A DNA stretch of 64,000 nt from a virus. Position numbers and translations under genes: made by a program. How positions within the stretch are numbered: position 1 is the first letter of the stretch; every line of letters starts with the position of its first letter. Shown one piece after another: positions 47,660 through 64,000 of this stretch. The notes under the pieces are model-generated. The model was not told the DNA's origin. It did not search any database and saw nothing but the letters and a program-made list of their open reading frames with translations. The stretch spans positions 19,182 to 83,181 of IMG/VR virus record IMGVR_UViG_3300031521_000040, one strand, 5' to 3'.

Positions 47660-47729
47660 CAAAATATTGTTCGATTTTTTATAAAATGATTCGAACTTTC
47701 ATATGTTTTCAGTATTTATGATAAAACAT

Positions 47730-48299: not shown

Positions 48300-48309
48300 A
48301 TATAACAGC

Positions 48310-49128
48310 ATGTATTACATAGTCCAGAAGAACGTCTTTAGAGAAGAAAATTACGATAATTTAATATTGGCTTTAGATCGATTAAAACTATCATACGAAA
48401 TAGTTGATGTACTACCATTTATTGAAACATTCGAGTTTCATTGTAAAGACAAAAATGTGTTTCCTTTTGGGTCAACGAAAATGGCTAGACTGTCTAAGCT
48501 ATATGGCTGGACACCCGGTTCTCAATTGAATGATAATCATGATTATCAGGTGTATAAAAACTTTTATGGTGATAATTTATTGAATTACGATTCACTTATT
48601 TATAAATTCGATGATGAATTTTTTGTTGACAAACCCTTTTTCGCCAGACCAACTAAAGATAGTAAAGCGTTTACTGGTAAGGTATTCGACATGGAAACAT
48701 GGAGAAAATTTAGAAACACTGCCTTAATCAATATACTTGATAAAGATACTGAAATTCAGGTATCATTAGTTAAAGTTATTCAAAAAGAAATAAGATTCTG
48801 GATAGTAAAAGGAAAAATTGCAACTGCAAGTCAATATAAACTAGGAACTAGAGTAGTGCTTAGCGACACCGTAGATCAGCCAGCATATGATTTTTGTAAT
48901 AAAATGATTCAATTGTTTCAATTAAACGATGCATTTGTAATGGATTTGTGTTTGGTTAATGATGAATATAAGATCGTTGAGTGTGGGTGCATTAATTGTG
49001 CTGGTTTCTATCGAGCTGATCTACAGAAATTATTGGTTAAACTAGAAGAAGCATTCTCAAACGATTATTTTGATCGTTGTTATCCGTCATTTTGTAATCC
49101 CATGGATCAAAACTTCTTGCGTTTATAA
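48310..49128 (+). CDS. ATP-grasp protein (R2K-like)
   Basis: FARPTKDSKAFTGKV, EIRFWIVKG, FVMDL, KIVECGCINCAGFY. Confidence 0.75.
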   Translation: MYYIVQKNVFREENYDNLILALDRLKLSYEIVDVLPFIETFEFHCKDKNVFPFGSTKMARLSKLYGWTPGSQLNDNHDYQVYKNFYGDNLLNYDSLIYKFDDEFFVDKPFFARPTKDSKAFTGKVFDMETWRKFRNTALINILDKDTEIQVSLVKVIQKEIRFWIVKGKIATASQYKLGTRVVLSDTVDQPAYDFCNKMIQLFQLNDAFVMDLCLVNDEYKIVECGCINCAGFYRADLQKLLVKLEEAFSNDYFDRCYPSFCNPMDQNFLRL

Positions 49129-49159
49129 AATTTAATAATTACTTTTGCAATAAAACGAT

Positions 49160-49405
49160 ATGAGAGCAGTTGTACCCTGTAATATCGACAATTCTGAAGA
49201 TATTGTCGATACAATAAAATACAATACTATAGGCATTTATGAAGATACAATATCTTCATTCAAAGACTATGTACTACCTGAAAATTCATTAGAACCAACA
49301 ACTACCACAATCTTTTTTCATAAAAGAGAAGATGAACATGGGTTTCTTCAACAAGTTACTATAACAATTAAAACAGAAGTCTTATTAGGATTTCAAAAAT
49401 ATTAA
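49160..49405 (+). CDS. Hypothetical protein
   Basis: 81 aa; TACTTTTG promoter element at 49140. Confidence 0.5.
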   Translation: MRAVVPCNIDNSEDIVDTIKYNTIGIYEDTISSFKDYVLPENSLEPTTTTIFFHKREDEHGFLQQVTITIKTEVLLGFQKY

Positions 49406-49408
49406 TAT

Positions 49409-49873
49409 ATGCAGTACAATCTATATTTAGATGACTTCAGAATGCCATTGGATTCGTTCAATTATACTAACAATAAAATATATAATATTGTTAATTGGAA
49501 GGTTGTGCGTAATTATGATGAATTCGTTGAAGCGATTCTAACTAATGGATTGCCTGAACGAATTTCCTATGATCATGACTTATCATATGAAGATATCAAT
49601 AAAGAAACTGGCTTTACTGAAAAAACTGGCTTGGATTGTGCTAGGTGGCTTATAAACTACTGTATGGATAATAATTTAGATGTGCCAGTTGAAATTTATA
49701 TTCATAGTATGAATACCGTTGGTGCATTAAATATTAAATCATTATTTACTACCTATTATAAGGTATACCCAACCGATAACGACTTTTATATTAATGATGT
49801 CTATATTAAAAACGGATTCTATTCTTATAATTATAGTCGTGGCTTTAATATGTGGAATGAAGATATTTATTAA
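49409..49873 (+). CDS. Cyclic-phosphate-processing receiver-domain protein
   Basis: LYLDDFR, VRNYDEF, ISYDHDL, TGLDCARWL, IHSMNTVG. Confidence 0.8.
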   Translation: MQYNLYLDDFRMPLDSFNYTNNKIYNIVNWKVVRNYDEFVEAILTNGLPERISYDHDLSYEDINKETGFTEKTGLDCARWLINYCMDNNLDVPVEIYIHSMNTVGALNIKSLFTTYYKVYPTDNDFYINDVYIKNGFYSYNYSRGFNMWNEDIY

Positions 49874-49921
49874 GCATGCGTTTTTAAATAAAATAAGTAT
49901 TTATGAAAAAATATATATTTT

Positions 49922-50344
49922 ATGCAAAAAATAGGTAAAGACAGACTTTTCGAAGTCCTAAGTAGGTTAGATAAAACATTCAAACTCATAAATGAAGAAC
50001 AACTACATCATTATAATGATGCTAACGAAACATTTGCACCCGATCAAAATGGCAATGAAGTTACAGATACTGTAAGTCCTGCTACAAGTACAGCACCACT
50101 TAACGAAGATCAATCAGAATCACCTATTCATAAATATGTTTACTTTGCATTTAACTATCCTAATGATTTTATTGAGCAAACATGGGCTGATGATGAAAAT
50201 TTAATGACCCATCTTAAATCTAAATTCCAAGGATATTATAATAAGTATGGTTCAGCTTCAGTAATGAATTATTTTTATACTGAACTTGATGTTCAAAATC
50301 AAAGGAAATTGGATGATTGGATTATTAATAATTATAATGGCTAA
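49922..50344 (+). CDS. Putative internal head protein
   Basis: KDRLFEVLSRLDKTFKLINEE leader; late motif at 49896. Confidence 0.55.
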   Translation: MQKIGKDRLFEVLSRLDKTFKLINEEQLHHYNDANETFAPDQNGNEVTDTVSPATSTAPLNEDQSESPIHKYVYFAFNYPNDFIEQTWADDENLMTHLKSKFQGYYNKYGSASVMNYFYTELDVQNQRKLDDWIINNYNG

Positions 50345-50350
50345 TATGTC

Positions 50351-50560
50351 ATGAATGAACGCAGGGAATATATCAAAGTAGGTAGGAAAGCTTCTAAACG
50401 TGGCGATAGAGCTATAGCTTCTTCTTGTAAATATGATAGCTATTGGACTCAACCTTGTAATAAATATTGGAAAAGACAGGCAAATAAAAAGGTTAGATGC
50501 TCAAATATCATCAATAATATGGGATATAAAAGGATTTATGATAGCTTTTACTGGTCTTAA
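50351..50560 (+). CDS. Small basic protein
   Basis: 69 aa; KYWKRQANKKVR. Confidence 0.5.
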   Translation: MNERREYIKVGRKASKRGDRAIASSCKYDSYWTQPCNKYWKRQANKKVRCSNIINNMGYKRIYDSFYWS

Positions 50561-50613
50561 AACAATTGATATTTAATGAGTTAAAAATTATTATTAATTA
50601 TTTTTAAAAATAC

Positions 50614-50656
50614 TTTGCATTTCTTGTAACATTTTATACCTTTGTTACGTATTTAG
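50614..50656 (+). promoter_or_regulatory. Nested promoters of tRNA array 2
   Basis: Near-identical to 46840-46882. Confidence 0.75.
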
Positions 50657-50724
50657 ATATACAAACAACAATAAGTAATTATTGAAATTTATTAAAAACA
50701 ACGAATATTAAAAACAAAAACGAA

Positions 50725-50814
50725 ATGAAAAATTTACTCGAAACTTTATTAGTAGCAATGGTAGCCGACCTATTATGGTTGGATGCAGAGGATATGTTAT
50801 GTGATGTCGGGTAA
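50725..50814 (+). CDS. Attenuator leader peptide 2 (MKNLLETLLVAMVADLLWLDAEDMLCDVG)
   Basis: 29 aa; 21 residues are L/D/E/V/A/W, matching the downstream tRNAs. Confidence 0.8.
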   Translation: MKNLLETLLVAMVADLLWLDAEDMLCDVG

Positions 50815-50850
50815 AGGAAATAATAATATTGTTCACCTTTCTTTTTATAA

Positions 50851-50884
50851 AAGACCCGACTATTAAAACCAGTCGGGTTTTTTT
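50851..50884 (+). terminator. Attenuator terminator 2
   Basis: AAGACCCGACT...AGTCGGGTTTTTTT; ACCCGAC can alternatively pair with GTCGGGT (50806-50812). Confidence 0.85.
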
Positions 50885-50928
50885 GTTTTAGGTGAATAAG
50901 TTCTTTGACATGCTGGAAAAAATAAAAT

Positions 50929-51008
50929 GGTCTTAGGGTCTGCTGGGCGTGGACGACACCCTGTCACGGTGTTCAATCAGGTCGATTCGAATTCGACTAG
51001 GACCGCCA
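50929..51008 (+). tRNA. tRNA-Asp(GTC)
   Basis: ACACC-CTGTCAC-GGTGT, G73, encoded CCA. Confidence 0.85.
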
Positions 51009-51015
51009 TTAATAC

Positions 51016-51088
51016 AATGCTATAGTTCAATTGGCAGAATAACTGACTGTCTATCAGTGGGTTGCGGGTTCGAGTCCCGTTAGCATTG
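51016..51088 (+). tRNA. tRNA-Asp(GTC)
   Basis: ACTGA-CTGTCTA-TCAGT. Confidence 0.9.
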
Positions 51089-51148
51089 CACGGTTTACTG
51101 GAAGGTAAACTAATCAGAGTTATATAAAACGTGATAAATTAACTCTGA

Positions 51149-51218
51149 AGTCTCGTAGTTTAGAGTGGATATGAATGCCCTGAAGGGGTGGTTGCTGGTT
51201 CAACGCCAGTCGGGACTG
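51149..51218 (+). tRNA. Degenerate tRNA, anticodon undetermined
   Basis: Acceptor, D and T arms present; anticodon arm shortened (GCCC-TGAAG-GGGT). Confidence 0.5.
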
Positions 51219-51228
51219 CTTTTAAAAT

Positions 51229-51303
51229 GTTGCCGTTGATAAATTGGCGAAATCACCTGACTTTCAATCAGGTCATATGTGGGTTCAAGTCCCATCGGCA
51301 ATA
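51229..51303 (+). tRNA. tRNA-Glu(TTC)
   Basis: CCTGA-CTTTCAA-TCAGG. Confidence 0.88.
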
Positions 51304-51309
51304 CAATAT

Positions 51310-51382
51310 GTCGCTATATGCTAATTGGCTAGGCAATAACACCTTCACTGTTATGGTGTGAGTTCGATCCTCACTAGCGATA
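51310..51382 (+). tRNA. tRNA-Glu(TTC)
   Basis: TAACA-CCTTCAC-TGTTA. Confidence 0.8.
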
Positions 51383-51403
51383 CAATTTTTAAATAAAAAC
51401 GTT

Positions 51404-51541
51404 ATGAAACCATTAAAAAGAAAATTAACCTCAACTGAATTTAGTAAAAAGCAAGAGAACGCAGCTAATTACGGAAAATTCATTAAAACAACTTTAGTTG
51501 AAAGAGGTAAACAGAGAAACATTTTCAAAATTAAGAACTGA
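51404..51541 (+). CDS. Small basic ORF (45 aa) inside the tRNA array
   Basis: MKPLKRKLTSTEFSKKQENAANYGKFIKTTLVERGKQRNIFKIKN. Confidence 0.4.
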   Translation: MKPLKRKLTSTEFSKKQENAANYGKFIKTTLVERGKQRNIFKIKN

Positions 51542-51599
51542 TAACATATAAGCGGTTAATAGCCTGTGAGACATTAACGGCTAATATATTATTACTTAT

Positions 51600-51674
51600 G
51601 TTCCCTTAGCTTAGCTGGTTTAAAGCACTTCTCCTACAAAGAAGATACCGTTGGTTCAAATCCAACAGGGAACA
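51600..51674 (+). tRNA. tRNA-Val(TAC)
   Basis: CTTCT-CCTACAA-AGAAG. Confidence 0.88.
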
Positions 51675-51741
51675 CAAAACATAACAATAAGTGTTTTCGC
51701 TTATATTCATATTTAATAAGCGAAAACACTTGTAAATATAT

Positions 51742-51823
51742 CCTTTTGTGGTGGAATTGGTATACACGGCAGCCCAAGAAACTGTTGTCGAAGGACATGC
51801 GAGTTCAAATCTCGCCAAGAGGA
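51742..51823 (+). tRNA. tRNA-Leu (AAG by register; class II)
   Basis: Leu-type D arm GTGGAATTGGTATACAC, GCAGC-CCAAGAA-ACTGT, long variable arm. Confidence 0.75.
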
Positions 51824-51989
51824 CTGAGATGTAATATGGTAATAAAGACGATGGCTGAGTGAGGCTATAGCGTGTCCAAAGCGCCAATAGACCACCAGAG
51901 GTTAACTCCCGATGCAATATCTGGCAACCTCACTCCCATATTACGGAAAGATGAATTATCGTCTGGAGATTCCAGACGGAAAATAATAT

Positions 51990-52064
51990 GCTGGTGTAGC
52001 CGAATGGTAAATAGGCAACTGACTTAGGATCAGAAATTTGCGAGTTCGAGTCTCGCCACCAGTA
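51990..52064 (+). tRNA. tRNA-Leu(TAG), short variable arm
   Basis: CTGA-CTTAGGA-TCAG. Confidence 0.82.
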
Positions 52065-52069
52065 CATTT

Positions 52070-52158
52070 GGGGATGTGATGAAATTGGTAGCACATGACA
52101 AGCTTAAACCTTGTTGCGAAATAATAGTAGCGTGTCAGTTCGAGTCTGACCTTCCCTA
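52070..52158 (+). tRNA. tRNA-Leu(TAA)
   Basis: ACAAG-CTTAAAC-CTTGT, long variable arm. Confidence 0.88.
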
Positions 52159-52169
52159 CTGAAATACAT

Positions 52170-52241
52170 GGGGTGTGAAGTGTAATTGGCTGCACAAAAC
52201 ATTTGCAATGTTTTAGAGGGGTTCAAGTCCCACACGCTCCA
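52170..52241 (+). tRNA. tRNA-Ala(TGC)
   Basis: AAACA-TTTGCAA-TGTTT; G3:U70 pair. Confidence 0.85.
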
Positions 52242-52305
52242 CAAGAAATTTTGAGTTCATTCAATCTTTTCTCCACAATTAAAGTATTTATGATAAAATA
52301 TTATT

Positions 52306-53097
52306 ATGAATATATGTAAAAATTGTGGAATTGAAATCGAATCACATCGTAAATATTGTTCATTGAGATGTAGAAATATATATGTTAATGAAAATCTTAG
52401 AAACTATAGTAAAAACGGTGATTCTATTAGCAAAAAATTTGTTGATGAATATAATTCACATCCAAAAAAATGTAAAGCATGTGATAAAATTATACCATAT
52501 GCGCTAAGGGAATGGGTTTTTTGTTCTAAAGAATGTAAAAAAACTGGATTAATTAAGTGGAATGAAAATCGAAAAGGCGAAAAGCGTAGTTTTAGTAAAG
52601 AAGGAATTGATAATATTATTATAGCAAGACGATTAAGATTAGATACTAGTTTTGAGGATTACATGTCTAATCCGAAACTTTGTAAAGAATGTGGTGAAAA
52701 ATTGCCGTTTGACCATAAAGCACGAATTTTCTGTAATATTAAATGTAAACGAATTTATGATAGTAAAAACATATCCGAATATCAAATTTATTATAAAAAT
52801 TGTCAGTTTAAATTTAATTTATCTAACTATCCAGAAGAATTTAATTTCGATATGATAAATGAATATGGTTGGTATAAAGCAAAAAATCATGGTGATAATT
52901 TAAATGGTATTAGTCGTGACCATATGATTTCAGTAAAATATGGTTATGAAAATAATATTAGCTCAGATATTATTTCTCACCCTGCTAATTGCAAACTAAT
53001 GCCACATAGTAGTAATTCAAAGAAACATAGTAACTGTTCGCTTAGCTTAGAAAACTTGCTACTAAAAATCAATGAATGGAATTTAAAATATTATTAG
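52306..53097 (+). CDS. HNH-like endonuclease with Zn-finger repeats, inserted in the tRNA array
   Basis: Three CxxC...(Y/F)C..C modules; SRDHMIS...HPANC.LM....NSKK; late motif at 52283. Confidence 0.75.
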   Translation: MNICKNCGIEIESHRKYCSLRCRNIYVNENLRNYSKNGDSISKKFVDEYNSHPKKCKACDKIIPYALREWVFCSKECKKTGLIKWNENRKGEKRSFSKEGIDNIIIARRLRLDTSFEDYMSNPKLCKECGEKLPFDHKARIFCNIKCKRIYDSKNISEYQIYYKNCQFKFNLSNYPEEFNFDMINEYGWYKAKNHGDNLNGISRDHMISVKYGYENNISSDIISHPANCKLMPHSSNSKKHSNCSLSLENLLLKINEWNLKYY

Positions 53098-53135
53098 AAA
53101 TAAATAAAATCGTCTGGAAATTCCAGACAAAACAT

Positions 53136-53218
53136 ACGTAAGTTGCCGAGTGGTTAAAGGCGGTGGTCTCCAAAACTACTAGAGAAATCTTTCGTGGGTT
53201 CGAATCCTACCTTACGTG
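53136..53218 (+). tRNA. tRNA-Trp(CCA), long variable arm
   Basis: GTGGT-CTCCAAA-ACTAC; G73. Confidence 0.85.
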
Positions 53219-53240
53219 CTTGATAATCAACAAGTTATAT

Positions 53241-53314
53241 AGCCCTATATGCCAACTGGTAGAGTGAGGTGTTTCAAACGCATCGTAGTGAGAGTTCGAA
53301 TCTCTCTAGGGCTA
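53241..53314 (+). tRNA. tRNA-Leu(CAA), short variable arm
   Basis: GGTGT-TTCAAAC-GCATC. Confidence 0.75.
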
Positions 53315-53403
53315 CATTTAGTCATCGGGAATCTCCAGATGAAATTAATTTAATATTTTTGTAACATTTCGCTATAGTTATACGTATAATAATTAAAATA
53401 TTC

Positions 53404-54171
53404 TTGCTTATTATTATCATTATCATTACTTTTAACAAAAATTATCACATGTATATTATTTCAAATAAGAAAAAAGATTATTATGATGGCGTTGCTGGTA
53501 CAGTAGGCATTGATAAAACCATTGTATATAATCGTCAGCAAATTGAAATAGGTGAAAAGGACTTACCTTCTTTATTTAAAGTTGATATACATAATCATAA
53601 CAATTCTTCATTCACCAAATTGGATGCTTATCACATTAAAGATGAATATTCTAAAGATTTTTTTAATTATTCATGTGATATTATTGGATTTTGTGGTAAG
53701 ATTTATTTTTGTTGGAATTTCTATTATAAGAAATATAATAGGTTTACGCATGCTGATGAAACAGTTACTCATATTACATATGATATTACTGAAGCTAAGG
53801 ATATTTTAACAGATAAAAACTATTATGGTAATCTTGCTGACAATATCAACGATGTTCTAAATTATGATGCAATGCATTTGTTTAGAGAATTTAAAACACC
53901 TGTATTTGTTTATTCAGATGACCCACATGATTCGGTTTTGCTTGATAGGCGCAGATATAGATGGGCAAAAAAGATCATATTGAATCCAATATTAAATGAT
54001 TTCAACTTCTATTCTGAGTTTGATTCATTTCAAGCATTTCAAGAAATTCAGATGTTTATCGGTGGCGTACTAGGTTGTAATGAAAAAGATATTATTGAAG
54101 TTGCTGATAAATATAAGATTGCGCAGCACGGATTTGATAAATTTAGTTTTAGAAAGGATAAGGAAAAATGA
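53404..54171 (+). CDS. Conserved phage hypothetical protein (likely start near 53449)
   Basis: KKDYYDG...FQAFQEIQMFIGGVL...KIAQHGFDK.SFR. Confidence 0.6.
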   Translation: MLIIIIIITFNKNYHMYIISNKKKDYYDGVAGTVGIDKTIVYNRQQIEIGEKDLPSLFKVDIHNHNNSSFTKLDAYHIKDEYSKDFFNYSCDIIGFCGKIYFCWNFYYKKYNRFTHADETVTHITYDITEAKDILTDKNYYGNLADNINDVLNYDAMHLFREFKTPVFVYSDDPHDSVLLDRRRYRWAKKIILNPILNDFNFYSEFDSFQAFQEIQMFIGGVLGCNEKDIIEVADKYKIAQHGFDKFSFRKDKEK

Positions 54172-54440
54172 AACCTGTTATAAACAAAATATTTTTCATA
54201 CCTGCTAAGTTCGTGGAAGTTCGTGGCGATAAAGTAGTTCTCGATTGCTTGCTTACAGCAAATCATCAGGGTATTGAAAGAAGAATTTTCGATAAAATAT
54301 TGTTTGACGATATTGATAATCCAAATCTAATTATGATTGCAATGATATCAGGCTTTATGTGTTTTCAGATTAATGTAATGTCTGCCGATGAATATATGTA
54401 TTTGTATAAGAAAAAATGGTTTTGGCTGTTAAAAAATTAA
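54168..54440 (+). CDS. Hypothetical protein
   Basis: Operonic ORF. Confidence 0.5.
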   Translation: MKPVINKIFFIPAKFVEVRGDKVVLDCLLTANHQGIERRIFDKILFDDIDNPNLIMIAMISGFMCFQINVMSADEYMYLYKKKWFWLLKN

Positions 54441-54913
54441 TCATGGAACAATTAGATAAGAGAAAAATTAAATTTAGGATAGTTGAACACCAATATGATA
54501 ATGGTAGTAAAAGTTTCACACCTGAATGGTATTGCTATATTAAACAAGCATGTAATTTTGGATGGAATCCTTGCTATGGTTCTAATTTAACTGCGGAAAC
54601 CGATACGCATGAACAGGCATTAAAAAATATCATTTTTTTTGCTGGTTGTATTGGATTATTCGTATCCAAGCCTAAAGAAATTATACATGAAATAAACATA
54701 GGTAATTTATTTGATATCAATAAAGACTGTAGAAAAACACCTGATATTGAAAAAACAGATGAAATACTTGCTGAGCTTAAATTAAGAAAAAGAAGAAATC
54801 TCATGAATCGAGCACTAAACAATAACGCTTCAGAATTCGCATATAGTGAAATTGAAATCACGGTTTTGAATGATTTGATTAAGTACGTTCAAGATTTAAT
54901 AAATAGCAAATAA
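54416..54913 (+). CDS. Hypothetical protein
   Basis: Operonic ORF. Confidence 0.5.
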   Translation: MVLAVKKLIMEQLDKRKIKFRIVEHQYDNGSKSFTPEWYCYIKQACNFGWNPCYGSNLTAETDTHEQALKNIIFFAGCIGLFVSKPKEIIHEINIGNLFDINKDCRKTPDIEKTDEILAELKLRKRRNLMNRALNNNASEFAYSEIEITVLNDLIKYVQDLINSK

Positions 54914-55076
54914 TGAAAAAAACTGAAAAGATATTACTGGCGCTTAAGGCAGACAGAAGATTAAATGATACTCATTGTACTTTAAACAACTGTTCACCTT
55001 CACAATATATGCAAGGTAGTAATAAAATATTGGATGATTACATTATATATGTAGAAAATTTAATAAATAAGAAATA

Positions 55077-55364
55077 ATGGACTTTGAATCGGGTGATATT
55101 GTTTTAGTTAAAAAAGGAACTACTGTATGGCTAGTTAATCTTGGCTTAGGTATGATACTTGCGTATGACATATTGGTTGAAATTGATTGTTATTTTGGCG
55201 GTAGTTATTTAGGTAAAAGAAAATTGATATGGGAAAAGGACGATGATTTTGAATTAATAGATAATGCAGCAGCTTTTGAACTATTTAAAGATGATCTTAA
55301 AGACCTAATCAAATACGATACACTTACATATGAAGAAAAATTAGCACTTACCAAATACATTTAA
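55077..55364 (+). CDS. Hypothetical protein
   Basis: Operonic ORF. Confidence 0.5.
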   Translation: MDFESGDIVLVKKGTTVWLVNLGLGMILAYDILVEIDCYFGGSYLGKRKLIWEKDDDFELIDNAAAFELFKDDLKDLIKYDTLTYEEKLALTKYI

Positions 55365-55368
55365 TATT

Positions 55369-55701
55369 ATGAAAATCAGGAAAATATGTGGATTCATGCG
55401 GTTCTTTTTAGGTGACAGCGTTTTAGCTATTACATTAGCTCCTTTTGGCATATATGTTAAACCCGATTATGATATAACAGAAGATACCATCAGACATGAA
55501 ACGATACATTGGAAACAACAAATGGAAATGTTAATAATTCCATTTTATCTCTGGTATTTTGCTGAATACATCATACGTGTGATACTTTTCGAAGATAAAC
55601 CATATATGAACTTGTCAATGGAGAAGGAAGCATATCAAAATGAAAACAACGTTGATTACTTAGCAACTCGCAAGCATTTTGCTTGGTTTAAATATTTATG
55701 A
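55369..55701 (+). CDS. HExxH-motif membrane-associated protein
   Basis: AITLAPFGI, IRHETIHWKQQME, SMEKEAY. Confidence 0.65.
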   Translation: MKIRKICGFMRFFLGDSVLAITLAPFGIYVKPDYDITEDTIRHETIHWKQQMEMLIIPFYLWYFAEYIIRVILFEDKPYMNLSMEKEAYQNENNVDYLATRKHFAWFKYL

Positions 55702-55855
55702 TTATGAAAAGGATAGTAAATTGGTTTAAGAAGTGTTATTTGAATTACCAGATAAGCGAGAATGATATCGCATTAACTATTCAAGCCATAACATATGAAG
55801 AATATTTAATAATTGACGATAAGTTAAAAAAAGAACTTGAAAAAATAAAATAATC

Positions 55856-56581
55856 ATGAAAGTAAAAATAGGTAATAGAGTATTTGATGCTGATGATCAG
55901 CCAATCATGCTTTACTTTGAAGACAGTAGTGAGTCACAAACGGTTGCAATGCAATTGTTTAATATGGCAACTGATTCTCGAAAATATTGCATGTATCCTG
56001 ATGACACTGATGCCACCAAGATTTTAAATTTCATGAATACCGATAAGTATGACGAACAAAAAAGATGCAACGATCAATGGATTTCGTTAATAAAGCAAAT
56101 TGGTTTTTCAGATAAGAATATTAAAACAGTGCTGAAATATGTTAAGCTGCATACAAGATATGAAATAGCTGGAATGGTTATTGATAAAAACATTACTTCT
56201 CCAAGTGACATACCAGTACCAACACTATATTTAGCATTAAAGGTTTTATTTGAATTGGAAAAACAAGGTCTTTTCAACAGGTTATTTTTCATTGATAGAC
56301 CGACAATAAGCACTTATAAATTTAACAGAAAATCATATTCTTTTAATGTTGCAACTAGTATTATGAAGTTCAAATTAAATCCTTATGATGATTTTCCGAT
56401 CTCAATGCTGGAAACAGGACTTGATGATGTAATAGTTAATGAAACGGTTTTCATATTGAAAAAGCAATTGGATTCGACACCATTATTAATATTCATTCTC
56501 TTTTCAGATAGAAGTATAATTGATGGTAAAGAATTAATAATAAGCCACAGATATTCAGTGGGTAAAATAAACGAACAATGA
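55856..56581 (+). CDS. Hypothetical protein
   Basis: 241 aa ORF. Confidence 0.5.
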   Translation: MKVKIGNRVFDADDQPIMLYFEDSSESQTVAMQLFNMATDSRKYCMYPDDTDATKILNFMNTDKYDEQKRCNDQWISLIKQIGFSDKNIKTVLKYVKLHTRYEIAGMVIDKNITSPSDIPVPTLYLALKVLFELEKQGLFNRLFFIDRPTISTYKFNRKSYSFNVATSIMKFKLNPYDDFPISMLETGLDDVIVNETVFILKKQLDSTPLLIFILFSDRSIIDGKELIISHRYSVGKINEQ

Positions 56582-57018
56582 GAAAAATTACAGTGATAAT
56601 TGAAGATGGGTTCAATACTTTAAGTCAAACAATTAAATGTGATGCCATTTGCTTTGCAGCATCAGGTGTTGGTGCATTAAGCAGTCATTTAAATCATGAA
56701 ATGAATATGCTTATTGAGTCTCAAAAGGATTGGATTGCTGAAGAGCCAAAAGATTGTAAATTTGTCATAGCGTGTAGATATAGTGATGTAATTGCATGTG
56801 GTATTGATACATCGTTTGATGCTTTATGTGTATACATTGGTGAACATTTCAATAATGTATGCAAGAGAAATCCTAGCTATTCAGATAAATATACAAAAGA
56901 AGAGCATAAGAAATTTTGGTATCATTTATTAGAAGTAAATGAAAGTGAATGTGAAAATTTAATGAGAGATCACATTGATAATGCTCATGAAAATAAATGG
57001 TTTCATTATAGTGCTTAA
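56578..57018 (+). CDS. Hypothetical protein
   Basis: 146 aa ORF. Confidence 0.5.
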   Translation: MRKITVIIEDGFNTLSQTIKCDAICFAASGVGALSSHLNHEMNMLIESQKDWIAEEPKDCKFVIACRYSDVIACGIDTSFDALCVYIGEHFNNVCKRNPSYSDKYTKEEHKKFWYHLLEVNESECENLMRDHIDNAHENKWFHYSA

Positions 57019-57027
57019 ACTAATATT

Positions 57028-57480
57028 ATGAACGAAGAAAGCTGGAAAACACTAAATAAATTCCATGATGATCTAATAATTGCAATTGAAGAATATGAAA
57101 ATTCTCCTGAAGGCAAGACAGCTAATGCATGGAAGAAATATCTTGAAGAATTTCAAGAAGAACGGTTTCAACAATTTGAAAAATGGTTAGAACATAACGA
57201 TTTTGATAAATTGATATATCGTTTAATATCGGAACATGATGCTGACTATCGTGATAGCTGGTATGAAAGAGGTATTGAGCCACAGCCGAATAATAAACTA
57301 CAATTTTTACTCGATTATGTTGATAATAGGTGTAAAATAACTAACGTGAAAAAGCTTGATTGTGGGTTCAACAACCAAATACGATTATTTAAGGGTTATT
57401 ACTTTCAAACAACACATGGTCAAGGGACTGTTACTGATATCTATAACAAAAAGAAACTGCAACACTTATTACACGTATGA
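57028..57480 (+). CDS. Hypothetical protein
   Basis: 150 aa ORF. Confidence 0.5.
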   Translation: MNEESWKTLNKFHDDLIIAIEEYENSPEGKTANAWKKYLEEFQEERFQQFEKWLEHNDFDKLIYRLISEHDADYRDSWYERGIEPQPNNKLQFLLDYVDNRCKITNVKKLDCGFNNQIRLFKGYYFQTTHGQGTVTDIYNKKKLQHLLHV

Positions 57481-57785
57481 AAATATATAATAAATTAGTT
57501 CGTGATAAGATATTGAAAATATTGAAAAAAGCTGGTGTAAAGCATAAATATCATATTGCTGATGATGCTGAATACTATACTAAACTTCACGATAAACTAC
57601 AAGAGGAAATTCAAGAATTTGTTGAAAACCCATGTATGGAAGAATTTGCTGATATTTTGGAAGTATTAGAAGCTATTGGTAAATATCATAAACTTGATTT
57701 TGGTGAAATTAAAACAATAAAAGGAATTAAACAAATTGAACGTGGTGCATTCTATAATAAAATAATTTTAGAATCTACAGATTAA
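57477..57785 (+). CDS. MazG/HisE-like all-alpha NTP pyrophosphohydrolase
   Basis: YNKLVRDKI, KLQEEIQEF, EEFADILEV, ERGAF. Confidence 0.8.
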   Translation: MKIYNKLVRDKILKILKKAGVKHKYHIADDAEYYTKLHDKLQEEIQEFVENPCMEEFADILEVLEAIGKYHKLDFGEIKTIKGIKQIERGAFYNKIILESTD

Positions 57786-57790
57786 AATAT

Positions 57791-57878
57791 GGGGGTGTGA
57801 TGAAATTGGTAAACATAACAGACTTAAAATCTGTCGGTTAGCTTAAGCGCCTTGAGGGTTCAAGTCCCTCTACCCCTA
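57791..57878 (+). tRNA. tRNA-Leu(TAA)
   Basis: ACAGA-CTTAAAA-TCTGT, long variable arm. Confidence 0.9.
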
Positions 57879-58076
57879 CAAACCTAAATGAAATGAAAGC
57901 TAAACCAAAAGAAGATGATTGTAATTGTGGTAAACCATTGAAATTAGATGATCCACGAAAGAAAGCATTAGAAGCAAAAAAAATTATTAAGAAAAGAAAT
58001 CTACTTAAATAAAAGTATTTATTATTATGAAAAAACTATGGGAATTCTTGTAACGCTCTAATGCGTATACGGGATT

Positions 58077-58364
58077 ATGAGAAATAAAGAAACTATGGAT
58101 GCCACTGACAATCGTGGCGTATTCAATCGTGCATACAAGGAATATCTTGAGCACAAAGGAAAAATTCATTGCAGCTATTGCAAATATCATAAGGGTGAAA
58201 ATTACAAGGGTAATAGCTATGGAGGATATGGGAAAGTTAAGCTTCCTAATTGGAAGCTAGTATCGAAGAACCCTAAACAATGGATGAAAAAACCGATGAA
58301 AATCGTTGAAAAACCAACACATCACCCAATGTATAATATGTTTTATACTGAAATCAAATTTTAG
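58077..58364 (+). CDS. Small basic hypothetical protein
   Basis: CSYCKYH; 95 aa. Confidence 0.5.
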   Translation: MRNKETMDATDNRGVFNRAYKEYLEHKGKIHCSYCKYHKGENYKGNSYGGYGKVKLPNWKLVSKNPKQWMKKPMKIVEKPTHHPMYNMFYTEIKF

Positions 58365-58372
58365 TATAATAT

Positions 58373-58443
58373 GCGGATATCGTTCAAAGGTAGGACTGCT
58401 CCCCCATAAAGAGTAGATATGAGTTCGATTCTCATTATCCGTA
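58373..58443 (+). tRNA. tRNA with CAT anticodon (Met or Ile2), atypical
   Basis: GCTCC-CCCATAA-AGAGT; intact acceptor and T arms. Confidence 0.65.
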
Positions 58444-58447
58444 CAAA

Positions 58448-58906
58448 TTAAAATGTAACTGAGCAGATATTGGTTTTAAAATCAAAATCTAAGCCAGATA
58501 CATACAATCCACCACCTGTGTTTAAAACAGCATCACCTACATTGAATTTCCAAGGCTGTTCCGCTATGTTTTTATCTGTTTCATTTTCTAATGCATCGGT
58601 ATGCTTATTGTAGGATGCGAGCTTATATGTTCCCTCTACACCGTCTATTGATATAATGAAGTTCTCAACGCCAAAGTCATTCAACCAAAACGAAATATGC
58701 CAACTAATAAAAATATCACTATCATTGATGTCTGCATCAAAATCTGATGAAAATACTTCGTAATTAAAAAATGTTGAATCTTTTATTTCTTGACGAAATC
58801 TAAAATTATCGTTTTCCATTACAAAACCTTCGTTAAGAAATTTTTTAATCTCTTCATTAAGAATTGTATCTATGTTTTTTCCAGCGTTTAATGTTTTAAA
58901 ACTCAT
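58448..58906 (-). CDS. Hypothetical protein
   Basis: ILNEEIKKFLNE N-terminal motif; late motif at 58921. Confidence 0.55.
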   Translation of the reverse strand: MSFKTLNAGKNIDTILNEEIKKFLNEGFVMENDNFRFRQEIKDSTFFNYEVFSSDFDADINDSDIFISWHISFWLNDFGVENFIISIDGVEGTYKLASYNKHTDALENETDKNIAEQPWKFNVGDAVLNTGGGLYVSGLDFDFKTNICSVTF

Positions 58907-58980
58907 GTCAGTATTTTTCTATAAATACACTATGATTGTTAAAAATTCTTCATTATATTTGCAACATAATATATTGAAGT

Positions 58981-59995
58981 ATGATTGAAAGCAATGAAGT
59001 GTTTGTAAATGAAAAACATTGGCGAAGTATGAGTGAAAATGAATTAAGTGCATTGCATTAAAGATTTTCTCTTATTATAGAGAACATGGATTTCCATATT
59101 ACCCAACTGATAATGAAATAAGAAGAAAAGATTTTAATAAGCTTAAAAACTTTAACTTTCATAATGCACAGGATAGGGCAGTAATAAATCAAACAATGCA
59201 TGGACTTGGTTTAGCTTGGTCATATTTTCCACATGCTTTTGATGTTAAATCTAATGGTATGATGACTCCTTATGAGGCATTCATGAATGATGAAATATTT
59301 ATGAAAGTCATATTGAAAAGATTGAAGATGGGAACATATATTTCTGATTCTGGTATAAGAAAAATGTTAAAAATTTATACTGGTGTTCAAGGAGTATCTA
59401 ATTTCAGACCAACAGCAGCAGCGTGTTTATATGATGAATTTGGAAAAGATGGTGTCGTGTGGGATATGTCTGGCGGATGGGGTGGTAGATTGCTTGGCGC
59501 AGCTATTAGCAACGTTAATAAGTATATAGCTACCGAACCTTCGACTAAAACATTTAATGGTCTTAAATCGCTTGCAAATGACTTTTCTGGCAATATGATA
59601 TGTGAAATCAATCATTGTGGTAGTGAAGATTATGTTCCCGAAGTGAATAGTTTGGATATGTGTTTTACATCGCCACCATATTTTGATCTGGAACAATACT
59701 CAAGCGAATCAACACAAAGCTATATTAAATTTAATAATATTGAAAAATGGAGAGAAGGTTTTTTAAAACCAACATTTGATAATTGTTACTATGGACTAAA
59801 ACCTGAAAAATTCATGTTAATCAATATTTCAGATAAGGTTGGTAACAATATTAAGCTTGAAGATATTACAATTGAAACAGCAAAAGAAGTTGGATTTACA
59901 ATGTATGAAAATACTGGCTTGCTCTTTCAAATATAAATTTAATGGATAGTGGAATAAAATTTAAATATGAACCAATATATATTTTTAAAAAATGA
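58981..59995 (+). pseudogene. Amino-DNA methyltransferase with two apparent frameshifts
   Basis: WDMSGGWGGRLLG (SAM binding), FTSPPYF; frames shift near 59053 and 59908. Confidence 0.75.
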
Positions 59996-60051
59996 TCATT
60001 TTATGGTTGTAAAAAATATGAAGAGTATTTATATCTATAAAACTATATGGC

Positions 60052-60996
60052 ATGGGAAAAAAATGTTTTTTTGAAGAAAATGAAATTATTGATATTATTA
60101 AAAAATACACTATTGAAAACCTGAGTTGTGAAAAAATTGGAATTTTATATAATGTTTCATCGACCACCATATCACGAAACCTTAAAAAAAATAAAATTGA
60201 AATTAAAAAATGTAATGAGTATAAAAAATACACAGTAAATGAAGAATTTTTAAAAAATGTTAATGGTATTAATTCATATTTTATTGGGTTAATGGCATCG
60301 GATGGAAATGTTAAAAAGAATTTCAGGTGTTTTTCAATATCACAGTCAGGTATAAACGGCATGAAATTGATTGAGCAAATTTCTAATTGGTTAGCATATT
60401 CAGGGAAAATTTATCATGCAAGAACGTCATGTAAAATATCACATGGAATTACTATTACTTCGGAAAAATTGGTTTCCGAAGTAATCAAACACAATATAGT
60501 GCCAAATAAATCAGCAATATTCTATTATAATAATTTAGCCTTATTAAAAGAGTTTTTACAGGGATATGTTGACGGAGATGGATGTGTTGGCATTTACAAA
60601 AAAAACGGAAAAAATTACTATTATATTAGTTTTTTTGGTACTACAAAATTTATGAAAAGTATTATTTCATTAATTCCGATAATACCTACTTGTTATAAGA
60701 TAAATGAAAACTATCATGAAATTAAGTTTTTTGGTAAAAAGGGTATTGATTTCAGTAATTGGCTATGGGAATATCCAGTATATAGCGATAGTATAAAATA
60801 TAAAAAATATGTTTTATTTAAAGCCAATGAATACCTTAACAGTGAAAAATATCAATATAATAAACTAAATATTGATATTATGAATATGTTGGATAAAAAT
60901 TTTACAGTAAAAGAAATTTGTGATAAGCACAATATTAATAAAAGAACAGTTTATAATTTAAAATATAATAAAAAAAATGGAAGAGGTACTTACTAA
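60052..60996 (+). CDS. LAGLIDADG homing endonuclease
   Basis: YFIGLMASDGNV and FLQGYVDGDGCV; late motif at 60024. Confidence 0.88.
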   Translation: MGKKCFFEENEIIDIIKKYTIENLSCEKIGILYNVSSTTISRNLKKNKIEIKKCNEYKKYTVNEEFLKNVNGINSYFIGLMASDGNVKKNFRCFSISQSGINGMKLIEQISNWLAYSGKIYHARTSCKISHGITITSEKLVSEVIKHNIVPNKSAIFYYNNLALLKEFLQGYVDGDGCVGIYKKNGKNYYYISFFGTTKFMKSIISLIPIIPTCYKINENYHEIKFFGKKGIDFSNWLWEYPVYSDSIKYKKYVLFKANEYLNSEKYQYNKLNIDIMNMLDKNFTVKEICDKHNINKRTVYNLKYNKKNGRGTY

Positions 60997-62062
60997 AATC
61001 GATTGGAATGTATTAAATACTTATATTGAAAATAATTTAATTGTATCAAATAAACATCCAGAATATGATATTTGGATACTAAATTATTCGCCAAAGGCAC
61101 AGTCAAAAAAGTTTTGGGATGAATACACCATGTCCTGTAGAGGCTTAGTTGTAGATATTGATGGTAATATAATTAGCCGATGTATGAAAAAGTTCAAAAA
61201 TTATGAAGAACATGATCCATCGGAAATTGATATGTTACAGTCATTCGAAATTTTCGAAAAGATGGACGGGTCAATGATTTCTGTTTTTTGGTACGATGCA
61301 CGTAACGAATGGATTGTAGCCAGCAGGGGGTCTTTTATTTCGGAACAGTCTGTGGAAGCCAGAAAAATACTGAGTAATAAATCTGTTTACTTGGAAAAAA
61401 ATAATACATATATTTTCGAGGTAATATATCCTGAAAATCAGATAGTTGTCCACTACAATGGAATTCGTAGCTTAGTACTACTTACTGTTATTGAAACTAA
61501 GTCAGGCATCGAAGCACCATATGATAATGTATTAAATAACTATGTTGATTATTTTACTATCGTTAAGAAATATGATATTAAGAATATCAACAACTTAAAC
61601 GATTTAAAAATACTTGAAGAAGAAAATCATGAAGGTTTTGTTGTGAAATTTGCCGATGGATTCCGAGTTAAAGTAAAATTTAATGAATACATCCGATTGC
61701 ATGGTATTTTAACTAATGTTTCAAATGTTGTAGTTTGGGAACACTTAATGAATAACTATAACTTTGATCTATTATTAGATAGAGTTCCTGATGAATTTTA
61801 TGACTGGTTGAGAAGAACAGTGGGATCGCTACAATTGCAATATAATGATATTGAACGATTGGCTTTGAAGGATTTTATCAGAATTTATCATATAAATAAT
61901 ATATCAGATCGTAAAGCATTCGCAATGGAAGCTATAAAAACAGAACATCGTTCGATATTGTTTAGACTTTATGACAAAAAGCCATATGATGTATTAATCT
62001 GGAAACAAATTCGACCTGTATTTTCGAAGCCATTCAAAGATGGCTATGAATATGTTTCATAA
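60977..62062 (+). CDS. RNA ligase (T4 Rnl1-like)
   Basis: CRGLV, KKFKNY, EKMDGS (motif I), ASRGSF, FEVIYP, EGFVV, VKVKFNEY. Confidence 0.9.
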   Translation: MEEVLTKIDWNVLNTYIENNLIVSNKHPEYDIWILNYSPKAQSKKFWDEYTMSCRGLVVDIDGNIISRCMKKFKNYEEHDPSEIDMLQSFEIFEKMDGSMISVFWYDARNEWIVASRGSFISEQSVEARKILSNKSVYLEKNNTYIFEVIYPENQIVVHYNGIRSLVLLTVIETKSGIEAPYDNVLNNYVDYFTIVKKYDIKNINNLNDLKILEEENHEGFVVKFADGFRVKVKFNEYIRLHGILTNVSNVVVWEHLMNNYNFDLLLDRVPDEFYDWLRRTVGSLQLQYNDIERLALKDFIRIYHINNISDRKAFAMEAIKTEHRSILFRLYDKKPYDVLIWKQIRPVFSKPFKDGYEYVS

Positions 62063-62097
62063 AAAACGGTCATGCTGCAGAGTATGACCGTTTTTTT
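62062..62097 (+). terminator. Intrinsic terminator
   Basis: AAAAAACGGTCATGCT-GCAG-AGTATGACCGTTTTTT. Confidence 0.75.
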
Positions 62098-62122
62098 AGT
62101 ATTTATAAGAAAATCAAATACT

Positions 62123-62914
62123 ATGAAACCATTCACCTACTTAAAAAAATTATTTAAAAAAAAGAAAACAATCAAATTCGGGTGGAAAAAAGATAATCTA
62201 GACCCAAGAGACATTAAATTTAAAATTGAACAACAACACGCATTACCGCCGATGGTTGATTTAAGATCCTATTGTCCACCTGTTTATGATCAGGGTAATA
62301 TAGGTAGTTGTACTGCAAATTCATTGGCTGCTGCTTATCAGTTTGAGGAAATGAAACAAAAGGGTGAAAATTTTATCCCATCAAGATTATTTATCTATTA
62401 TAATGAAAGAGCATTAGAAGGAAATGTCAATACTGATAGTGGTGCTGCAATCAGAGACGGCATTAAAACAATGGTTACTGATGGCGTATGTCCTGAAACA
62501 ATATGGAAATATAGCCCAAATAAATTTGCAATAAAACCAACTAAAGAATGTTATGATGCTGCATTAAATAATCAGGTTGTAGAGTATTTAAGAATTACTC
62601 CACATAATTTATATGAAGTTAAACATTGCATTTCTGATGGTTATCCAGTTGTATTTGGTTTCATGATCTATGAATCATTTATGGATGCAGAAGTTGCACG
62701 TACTGGTATTGCGCCTATGCCTAAATCTAATGAAATATTACAAGGCGGACATGCTGTTCTTGCTGTTGGATATGATGACTCAATGGAAGCGTTAATTGTT
62801 AGAAATAGTTGGGGAAGTGATTGGGGCATTGATGGCTATTTTTATCTTCCATATGGGTTTGTTACTGAAGAAAACTTATCTGCCGATTATTGGACAATCA
62901 GATTGGTTGAGTAG
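62123..62914 (+). CDS. Papain-like cysteine protease (C1A)
   Basis: DQGNIGSCTAN, GGHAVLAVGY, RNSWG; start behind the late motif at 62098. Confidence 0.9.
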   Translation: MKPFTYLKKLFKKKKTIKFGWKKDNLDPRDIKFKIEQQHALPPMVDLRSYCPPVYDQGNIGSCTANSLAAAYQFEEMKQKGENFIPSRLFIYYNERALEGNVNTDSGAAIRDGIKTMVTDGVCPETIWKYSPNKFAIKPTKECYDAALNNQVVEYLRITPHNLYEVKHCISDGYPVVFGFMIYESFMDAEVARTGIAPMPKSNEILQGGHAVLAVGYDDSMEALIVRNSWGSDWGIDGYFYLPYGFVTEENLSADYWTIRLVE

Positions 62915-63023
62915 TATTTATATGCACGAATTAAATATTTTGTTAAATTAAACGATTTGGCTAATTCGTGCATTATCTTTGTACAAAATCTAATACAGTA
63001 TTCATTAAACATATAAACTAAAT

Positions 63024-63365
63024 ATGAGAAATATCTTTGAAATCATCAATGAAGAGATTGACACATTAAATATCAATAGCCAACAGAATAACAATCCAGA
63101 ACCTGATTATGGTTGGGCTATCTTTAGAATAGCAAACGGACATAAATATTATGTTATTAAAATAGATACGCAGTCTGATAAAATTATTATGTATGATAGC
63201 GGTGTTAAGTATTCGGATAGAAAAGTATTGAAGTTTTCGGAAAAAAGAGCAGCACAAATAATAAAAAAGAACATGAATGTTGATAAAAAATATGGAATTG
63301 TCAACAGTAGAGGTGTTCAAAAACTGTATGATTGGAGTATTCGTTACGATAATGGCTTAAGCTAG
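63024..63365 (+). CDS. Hypothetical protein
   Basis: IFEIINEEI N-terminal motif. Confidence 0.5.
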   Translation: MRNIFEIINEEIDTLNINSQQNNNPEPDYGWAIFRIANGHKYYVIKIDTQSDKIIMYDSGVKYSDRKVLKFSEKRAAQIIKKNMNVDKKYGIVNSRGVQKLYDWSIRYDNGLS

Positions 63366-63414
63366 TGTTGATAATCAACCAGTTAAAAATAAATGAAAAA
63401 TAATTGCAATTTTT

Positions 63415-63458
63415 TGTAACATTTTGCTTGTCTAATACGTATTTATGGTATATCTTTG
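63415..63458 (+). promoter_or_regulatory. Nested promoters of tRNA array 3
   Basis: TGTAAC-N17-CGTA, GTATTTAT, TATCTTTG. Confidence 0.7.
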
Positions 63459-63489
63459 TTAAATAAAACAAATAATAACAAAACAAACA

Positions 63490-63582
63490 ATGAGAACATT
63501 TGGTAAAACATATCGTGGTTATAAATCTTATAAGAAAACTCTTATGGAATCGGGATTGCTTTGTCAAATAAAAACAACTTAA
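63490..63582 (+). CDS. Attenuator leader peptide 3 (MRTFGKTYRGYKSYKKTLMESGLLCQIKTT)
   Basis: 30-aa ORF; codons 2-17 encode only R/T/F/G/K/Y/S. Confidence 0.75.
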   Translation: MRTFGKTYRGYKSYKKTLMESGLLCQIKTT

Positions 63583-63610
63583 AATAGTTTAATAGCATTT
63601 AGACATTATC

Positions 63611-63644
63611 AAAAACCCCGATTCATTAGAGTCGGGGTTTTTTT
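63611..63644 (+). terminator. Attenuator terminator 3
   Basis: AAAAACCCCGATTC-ATTA-GAGTCGGGGTTTTTTT; CCCGATTC can alternatively pair with GAATCGGG (63547-63554). Confidence 0.85.
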
Positions 63645-63845
63645 GTTCTTTAAAATATTGATGAAATGAAAGTTGTTTGAAATTATTATTGAAAGTCTGA
63701 AGGAAACTACATGGGAGACATACGCAATCGTGAGATAAAAAACGTGAGCAGTGGAAGGCGCTGACAGGCACAGAAGTTAAGAAATGTATTAGTAGATCAA
63801 ATCAGTATGTAATGAGATTAGAATGACGAGTAATCACACTAACGG

Positions 63846-63933
63846 GATATCTGTAGCTCAGTCAGGTAGAGCAGGAGACAGCGTTTGCGTATTAGAAACT
63901 CCGTGTCATAGGTTCAAATCCTATCTGGTGTCA
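63846..63933 (+). tRNA. tRNA-like gene with an expanded (about 21 nt) anticodon loop
   Basis: TAGCTCAGTCAGGTAGAGC D arm, GGAG...CTCC stem, ATAGG-TTCAAAT-CCTAT T arm. Confidence 0.6.
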
Positions 63934-63955
63934 TAAACCGTTGGTGTGTAATTTT

Positions 63956-64000
63956 GCCTTCGTAGCTCAATAGGTAGACGCACCTGACTTTTAATCAGGG
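63956..64000 (+). tRNA. tRNA-Lys(TTT), truncated by the window edge
   Basis: CCTGA-CTTTTAA-TCAGG. Confidence 0.85.

Follow-up and report, generated by a model that had tools for sequence, protein, structure and literature searches.

The IMG/VR virus record IMGVR_UViG_3300031521_000040 is 83,181 nt long, has a CheckV completeness of 27%, and covers only part of a phage of about 300 kb. Its terminal 64,000 nt, referred to here as the window, have a G+C content of 31% and carry 17 tRNA genes detected by ARAGORN, all on the plus strand and all specifying Pro, His, Gln, Asp, Glu, Val, Leu, Ala, Trp or Met. There are three tRNA cassettes in the window, each headed by a conserved promoter-associated box, TTGTAAC-N15-TACGTATTTA. 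The last of these, cassette 3, is the subject of this report. It is encoded on the plus strand and consists of the box (63414–63445), a leader open reading frame (ORF; 63490–63582), an intrinsic terminator (63611–63646) and the beginning of a tRNA array (array 3). Since the window ends where the contig ends, sequence past position 64000 is not in the record.

The leader ORF has 30 codons and a stop codon at 63580–63582, and its codons 2–17 encode R, T, F, G, K, T, Y, R, G, Y, K, S, Y, K, K and T. Lysine and tyrosine make up seven of these 16 residues, at codons 6, 8, 11, 12, 14, 15 and 16 (the putative sensor stretch, 63505–63537, +), against 13.3% in the long ORFs of the phage (binomial p = 0.003). 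Segments of 16 residues with at least seven Lys or Tyr are uncommon in those long ORFs (130 of 22,005, or 0.6%), and not one of the 22,005 is made solely of the seven residues found in the leader (R, T, F, G, K, Y and S). A first-pass annotation of the window had pointed out that codons 2–17 use only these seven residues and that none of them has a confidently called tRNA in arrays 1 or 2, and both observations are borne out by the ORF and by the ARAGORN specificities listed above.

The terminator consists of a 14 bp stem at 63611–63642 (about -18.8 kcal/mol) and a T-run, and its two arms are designated regions 3 and 4. An octamer inside the ORF, GAATCGGG (63547–63554), is complementary to CCCGATTC (63617–63624) in the 5' arm of the terminator, and the predicted pairing (-13.2 kcal/mol) was equalled in only 1 of 500 shuffled sequences. 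This antiterminator helix and the terminator are mutually exclusive. The octamer is the core of region 2 (63547–63569, +), and its extension to 63569 pairs with region 1 (63498–63520, +), which forms the 5' strand of a 1:2 helix (anti-antiterminator) predicted in full-length minimum-energy folds. Between the two strands is a small tip hairpin (63528–63547, +) formed by the Y14-K15-K16 codons and those that follow. Full transcripts are predicted to fold into the 1:2 helix, the tip hairpin and the 3:4 terminator.

The first element with the shape of a tRNA downstream of the terminator is found at 63847–63932 (+), and scores 37.4 bits against the Rfam tRNA model (gathering score 29). It has an anticodon loop of about 21 nt, was missed by ARAGORN under default settings, and was called only with the intron option or at a lowered threshold. 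The resulting assignments, Leu(tag) with a 12 nt intron and Ala(agc) at the lowered threshold, disagree with each other and were both rejected as unreliable. A counterpart is present at the same position in a related phage, G005 (L074:13122–13206, minus strand, 39.3 bits), so that an element of this type heads the Lys/Tyr array in two phages, with compensatory changes in the acceptor and T stems. It is followed by a tRNA-Lys(ttt) gene, of which the 5' 45 nt (63956–64000, +) are in the window. The first-pass annotation had named Lys(TTT) as the first recognizable tRNA downstream; the gene is indeed there, but the tRNA-shaped element precedes it.

The array could be followed beyond the end of the window in metagenome contig L081 (3,925 nt), which is 100% identical to window positions 60234–64000 (3,767 nt) and extends 158 nt further. 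In L081 coordinates, the completed Lys(ttt) gene (Rfam tRNA, 60.1 bits) is found at 3723–3797, Tyr(gta) at 3806–3885 and the start of a third tRNA at 3894–3925. The best ungapped matches to the first 32 nt of this third gene (21/32) are to two second-type Lys(ttt) genes, in G004 and G005, and to one Asn gene; an assignment as Lys(ttt), being tied with Asn, is not decisive. An exact search of IMG/VR with the 32 nt gave no match. Aligned to the region, Logan contigs from four peat metagenomes showed no variant in the leader. A 492 nt contig from another peat sample joins window positions 63832–64000 to 221 further letters and a promoter-box look-alike. With this look-alike about 221 nt past the window end, array 3 ends about 200 nt past it, and there is room for one further gene at most before the next promoter box. 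Array 3 of this phage therefore comprises the odd tRNA-like element followed by Lys, Tyr and a third tRNA gene.

Relatives were sought by scanning IMG/VR with the promoter box, which gave 14 DNA stretches, mostly in phage contigs of about 325 kb or in pieces of such contigs, and most with a tRNA array 3' of the box. The genomes compared comprise three that are complete (G001–G003) and two fragments (G004 and G005). A second search, in which a metagenome collection was scanned with a 19 nt leader pattern, returned 11 matches, six of them chance matches in unrelated DNA. DNA of the phage is present in several peat metagenomes, and the sequencing runs that contain it include no listed RNA run. 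The sole match in the GenBank phage collection was to LR756511.1 (223 nt, 69% identity), and a protein search of IMG/VR with a 113 aa ORF upstream of the cassette found no relatives.

The order of the tRNA arrays is the same, and on one strand, in G001–G005. Array 1 specifies Pro/His/Gln, array 2 Asp/Glu/Val/Leu/Ala/Trp and array 3 Lys/Tyr, with a lone Met gene between arrays 2 and 3 in most genomes, while array 4, located 6–18 kb past array 3, specifies Cys/Ile/Ser/Phe/Gly/Asn/Thr/Arg. A short ORF and a terminator are found ahead of each array. The leaders fall into four classes in which the dominant residues are those of the array that follows, and together the classes cover all 20 amino acids. 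Leaders of the Lys/Tyr class are found at window:63490–63582, L018:6673–6762(-), L039:5205–5288, L070:2566–2667, L074:13462–13554(-), L082:1270–1365, L083:754–849(-) and L090:7009–7104(-). An ATG-initiated leader ORF of 27–33 codons is kept in nine cassettes, in each case 30–100 nt 3' of the conserved box, and a terminator between leader and array was found in all relatives. The number of Lys and Tyr codons at positions 2–17 in five lineages is 7, 9, 7, 11 and 10 of 16 (p = 0.003 to 5e-7). At the DNA level, the leaders of G002 and G004 can barely or not be aligned with the others, and they nonetheless keep this richness. The positions of T, F, G, R and S vary between lineages, and it is only the abundance of Lys and Tyr that is conserved.

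The genes behind these leaders are equally restricted. In eight other Lys/Tyr cassettes (G001, G002, G004, G005, L080/L090, L082 and L083), only Lys(ttt/ctt) and Tyr(gta) follow the leader, with one to four genes in each array (the L083 contig is cut after the first Lys). Genes for Thr, Arg, Gly, Ser and Phe tRNAs are absent from array 3 of all the relatives. They are found instead in array 4, under a box, leader and terminator of their own (G001, G002, G003, G004 and L082), and in L082 they are mixed with Cys, Ile, Asn and Met. Examples of the array-4 leaders, which are rich in T, S, I, N, G, F, R and C, are located at L017:18895–19014(-), L070:12020–12145 and L082:7319–7435. The first-pass annotation had predicted an array past position 64000 dominated by Lys, Thr, Tyr, Arg, Gly, Ser and Phe tRNAs. 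Lys and Tyr were found as expected, in L081 and in eight relatives, and the other five specificities belong to array 4, so the prediction was half right. The scan of the next 5–10 kb that had been suggested as a check would probably meet these five as well, but in a separate transcription unit.

The broad version of the model behind that prediction, in which the leader senses all seven amino acids and the array carries tRNAs for each of them, draws on the unusual composition of codons 2–17 described above, and on the fact that the leader residues other than Lys and Tyr come mostly from the array-4 set. In addition, the third tRNA of the array of this phage has been read only in its first 32 nt. 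Such a version is very hard to reconcile with the comparative data, and we give it almost no weight: array 3 lacks genes for Thr, Arg, Gly, Ser and Phe in every relative, there is space for just one more gene before the next promoter box, and the five specificities already have a leader-gated array of their own. Nor are the positions of T, F, G, R and S conserved between lineages, in contrast to the abundance of Lys and Tyr. A run of F-G-K codons is conserved in a close sub-clade, and since these codons form the 5' strand of the helix with the region 2 extension, their conservation can be explained without a sensing role. The conserved bias of the leader, rather than every residue in it, is what predicts the array.

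The complementarity between leader and terminator is also maintained among the relatives, and the two strands change together. Three sequence versions of the 2:3 pairing were found: GAATCGGG/CCCGATTC in G000, G001, G005 and L08x, GGATCAGG/CCTGATTC in G002, and TAAGACTGG/CCGGTCTTA in G004. Each has a predicted energy of -12 to -13 kcal/mol, matched by at most 8 of 500 shuffles of the leader concerned. The six close leaders share an invariant 2:3 helix, and so are uninformative on covariation. A MAFFT alignment of eight sequences misaligned the terminators of G002 and G004, and these were therefore compared by folding. In each of the nine leaders, the 2:3 helix is the predicted fold of a transcript that ends before region 4. 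The tip hairpin is 100% paired in the six close leaders, and for the 1:2 helix 90% of cells are paired, compared with 32–54% in slid controls. Its changes comprise one that is compensatory and three that are one-sided, and as the structure was derived from one of the compared sequences, this conservation gives modest support to the predicted helix. G002 and G004 have only short equivalents of it.

Correspondence between leader and array was examined for all four classes. Residue fractions over the whole leader are misleading for the Lys/Tyr class, in which the eight-amino-acid array-4 set matches as many residues by chance, and enrichment over background was used for this reason. The assignment of leaders to their own arrays then ranked first among all permutations in each of six genomes. 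Array content and leader were also seen to change together. In G002, Leu(tag), Leu(aag) and Leu(gag) genes are located in array 4, and the only Leu codons of its array-4 leader are CTA and CTC. G001 keeps every Leu gene in array 2, and its array-4 leader lacks Leu codons. A hairpin finder gave 193 terminator-like sites in the six genomes, and those within 450 nt of a tRNA were classed as tRNA-proximal. A short ORF ending 12–45 nt upstream, together with a sequence predicted to pair with the 5' arm at -10 kcal/mol or better, was present at 19 of the 21 tRNA-proximal terminators and at 3 of the 172 others (Fisher p = 4e-21). One of these three is on the opposite strand of a Lys/Tyr terminator.

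These comparisons bear on whether the cassette is regulated at all. The ORF might be an ordinary small gene, or untranslated, with Lys and Tyr codons reflecting AT richness and the hairpin serving to end an upstream transcript or to insulate an array that has its own promoter. AAA (Lys) and TAT (Tyr) are AT-rich codons in a genome of low G+C, the promoter box also drives protein genes, and a conserved TTGACA-containing motif after several of the array-2 and array-4 terminators could be a promoter. Against this, comparable Lys/Tyr content is rare in the ORFs of the same phage, and the other three leader classes match their own arrays and are rich in GC-containing codons (Pro, Gln and His; Asp, Glu, Val, Ala and Trp). 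The complement to the terminator arm is kept through three sequence versions and is nearly confined to tRNA-proximal terminators. Moreover, in the Lys/Tyr cassettes of G001, G002 and G004 the first tRNA begins 10–25 nt past the terminator, which leaves no room for a promoter. An unregulated cassette is, on balance, unlikely.

If the alternative helices do constitute a switch, they could be set by something other than a ribosome, such as the binding of uncharged or cleaved tRNA in the manner of a T-box, or of a phage or host RNA-binding protein. The helices exist whatever sets them, and there are conserved RNA elements nearby, namely the odd tRNA-like element and a spacer element described below. 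An Rfam search of window positions 44000–64000, L081 and L074 detected no T-box or other riboswitch family at E <= 1. Matches to Thr_leader (20–31 bits against a threshold of 55) and PyrR (29 against 54) over the attenuators are sub-threshold and driven by the terminators, and do not indicate membership of these families. A switch of this kind would give no role to the conserved ORF length, the start codon, the stop codon at a fixed distance or the codon bias that matches the array, and a tRNA-docking fold would need leaders that are longer and less variable than these. We regard it as very improbable.

Taken with the comparative data, which support the attenuator model put forward in the first-pass annotation, the features of cassette 3 argue that it is probably a ribosome-mediated transcription attenuator of the leader-peptide type, with a short Lys/Tyr tRNA operon under its control. 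Elements expected at the sequence level are present: a leader ORF, clustered codons, a terminator, an antiterminator, and an array tied to the amino acids that would be sensed. Transcription would start at the conserved promoter box, and the 30-codon leader, with its seven Lys/Tyr codons at positions 6–16, would be translated while the polymerase advances. When Lys- or Tyr-tRNA is scarce, the ribosome would stall on region 1, freeing region 2 (GAATCGGG) to pair with the 5' arm of the terminator, and the polymerase would enter the array. With fast decoding, the ribosome would pass region 2 and reach the stop codon 25 nt further on, where it would stand between regions 2 and 3 and the terminator could form. 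Without translation, region 1 would pair with region 2 and the terminator would form as well. The phage's own tRNAs would then close the switch again, giving homeostasis.

The position of the stop codon is relevant to this scheme. The first-pass annotation had noted a gap of about 25 nt between the end of the antiterminator strand and the stop codon, which is confirmed by the coordinates (63547–63554 and 63580–63582), and had cautioned that the timing of cassette 3 might differ as a result. The spacing is real but probably harmless, as all five main lineages have the stop codon 21–36 nt past region 2 and 21–31 nt ahead of the terminator arm. If a ribosome is assumed to occupy about 15 nt behind the A site and 12 nt in front of it, stalls at codons 2–15 would cover region 1 and leave region 2 free. 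A ribosome at the stop codon would stand between regions 2 and 3, and should keep them apart while the 3:4 helix forms.

Several observations weigh against this interpretation. In every case the terminator is more stable at equilibrium than the alternative helix, and the proposed switch would have to be kinetic. A truncated transcript without a ribosome folds into the 2:3 rather than the 1:2 helix, which makes the untranslated default uncertain. Lys and Tyr are only 28% of residues over the whole leader, and nine of codons 2–17 specify T, F, G, R or S, which array 3 does not serve. The five main lineages together have 36 residues other than Lys and Tyr at codons 2–17, of which 30 are in the array-4 set, compared with about 51% expected; this excess could reflect cross-talk, and the lineages are not independent. 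More generally, the relatives of the cassette share ancestry, and counts across them are not independent events. The first element of array 3 is a tRNA-like RNA that received conflicting assignments. Lastly, in G003 a terminator is followed by a single Tyr gene, and neither a Lys gene nor a recognizable Lys/Tyr leader was found.

Other elements flank the attenuator. The promoter box has four matches in the window, against 0.07 expected, and heads tRNA cassettes in the relatives too, but it is not specific to cassettes; a copy at 13515–13546(-) precedes a kinase gene. Downstream of the box in cassette 3, TATCTTTG (63451–63458, +) can be read as a match to TAnnTTTG, the -7 promoter consensus of Bacteroidota, and transcription likely starts a few nt 3' of it. 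Equivalent TAnnTTTG elements are found 3' of the box in the Lys/Tyr cassettes of G001, G004, G005 and L083. These elements, along with an A-rich leader 5' region in which a Shine-Dalgarno sequence is absent, would fit a Bacteroidota host.

A boxA-like motif, GTTCTTTAAAA (63645–63655, +), is found directly 3' of the terminator. Motifs resembling GTTCTTTGA(C/A)A follow most of the attenuator terminators, including those of cassettes 1 (47071–47082) and 2 (50900–50910) as well as cassette 3, and occur after the terminators of arrays 2 and 4 in the relatives. They are absent from the Lys/Tyr cassettes of G001, G002 and G004. The rrn-type boxA is an antitermination site, located downstream of a promoter, that is bound by NusB/NusE. 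Between the terminator and array 3 is a conserved spacer element of 85 nt (63723–63807, +) that is 86% identical to a sequence at the same position in G005 (L074:13244–13328, minus strand). It has a weak consensus fold and no Rfam match, and is absent from G001, G002 and G004. In cassette 1, a structured RNA of about 235 nt (47085–47320; L019:4899–5144, minus strand) separates the terminator from the first tRNA-Pro gene. It is 89% identical in G001, with a consensus fold of -79 kcal/mol and four compensatory pairs, and has no Rfam match at E <= 1. An insert of about 250 nt, GC-richer and structured in appearance, is found in G004 only, between the box and the Pro/His/Gln leader (L015:9060–9330).

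The tRNA genes themselves include some atypical forms. Genes of 80–93 nt with long variable arms were found for Pro, Asp, Gln, Lys, Val, Thr, Gly, Cys, Asn and Met, which normally have short arms. They occur in the window (47326–47415 and 50929–51008) and many times in G001–G005, usually beside a gene of normal length with the same anticodon. ARAGORN also detected tRNAs with a CTA anticodon, amber-reading and labelled Pyl, in G001 (33976–34047, minus strand) and G002 (157717–157787, plus strand); these are possible suppressors.

A gene for a T4 Rnl1-like RNA ligase (60977–62062, +; PF09511, E = 1.7e-17) is located 1.4 kb upstream of cassette 3. Its start is overlapped by the gene for a LAGLIDADG/helix-turn-helix protein, probably a homing endonuclease (60052–60996), and it is followed by a gene for a papain-like C1 peptidase (62072–62914). 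The kinase gene downstream of the minus-strand copy of the promoter box (12972–13508, -) encodes an AAA_33 P-loop kinase, and the ligase and kinase may form a tRNA repair pair. In T4 infection, the damage done to tRNA-Lys by the anticodon nuclease PrrC is repaired by Pnk and Rnl1. tRNA-Lys is the classic target of anticodon nucleases, and the group comprising Tyr, His, Asn and Asp is classically cut too. Phage tRNA genes can counter the loss of host tRNAs, and the phage studied here carries its own Lys and Tyr tRNAs, an Rnl1-like ligase and a P-loop kinase. A link between cassette 3 and tRNA-targeting defence is plausible.

Across the phage family, cassette 3 is one of four channels: Pro/His/Gln; Asp/Glu/Val/Leu/Ala/Trp (with Met); Lys/Tyr; and Cys/Ile/Ser/Phe/Gly/Asn/Thr/Arg. 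A tentative extension, to which we would not give better than even weight, is that the four act together as a sensor of decoding speed, with each leader inducing the tRNAs for codons that are read slowly, and that the Lys/Tyr channel may answer anticodon nucleases. In that event the phage would detect tRNA-targeting defence via ribosome stalling, and respond with tRNA synthesis on demand and with repair. If the attenuation proposed for cassette 3 is real, a virus would gauge the decoding speed of defined sets of codons and make replacement tRNAs only as needed. It would offer a simple readout of the depletion or cleavage of host tRNAs during infection, and the cassette would be a compact, portable sensor for the supply of specific tRNAs. 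The present case adds a direct sequence test of a prediction of the attenuator model.

Phage tRNA genes are common and, to our knowledge, the control of their expression is largely unknown. Full-text literature searches found no published account of leader-peptide (trp-operon-style) attenuation of tRNA genes, whether phage or cellular, and no description of demand-sensing control of phage tRNA genes in systems of tRNA loss or T4 repair. Among published arrays of spare tRNAs that respond to stress, the closest is the trn operon of Anabaena sp. PCC 7120, a long and cryptic array that is induced under translational stress (PMC8421152, PMC10272220). It is controlled at the promoter, where the RHH (ribbon-helix-helix) repressor TrcR binds tandem 9 nt direct repeats that cover the -10 box and the transcription start (PMC8421152, PMC10272220), and the words 'attenuat', 'leader' and 'terminator' are absent from PMC8421152. 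Unlike cassette 3, the Anabaena operon is cellular, is not amino-acid-specific and has no leader peptide.

Attenuation by a leader peptide is a textbook form of control, described in amino-acid operons and in a synthetase operon. The cassette shares with the trpL, hisL, leuL, pheL, thr (Thr and Ile) and ilvGMEDA (Ile, Leu and Val) leaders a short, codon-enriched leader combined with an intrinsic terminator, and the layout of its predicted folds is the four-region design of the trp leader. As in those attenuators, region 2 would compete for the 5' arm of the terminator; the predicted region 1 overlaps the regulatory codons and might sequester region 2. The proposed sensing of more than one amino acid by a single leader has parallels in the thr and ilvGMEDA operons. 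There is also a resemblance to the pheST/thrS-type and T-box control of synthetase genes, in which genes of the translation apparatus are switched on when a particular charged tRNA is short. The pheST attenuator, however, regulates a synthetase and not tRNA genes, and T-box RNAs bind uncharged tRNA directly, while cassette 3 carries no T-box signature. In the amino-acid operons the stop codon precedes region 2 or is contained in it, whereas in the phage it is found about 25 nt further 3'. The phage system differs from these further in being viral, in having four leaders that divide the whole amino-acid alphabet, and in regulating tRNA genes rather than biosynthetic enzymes, so that the product would act directly on the quantity being sensed, the decoding speed of those codons.

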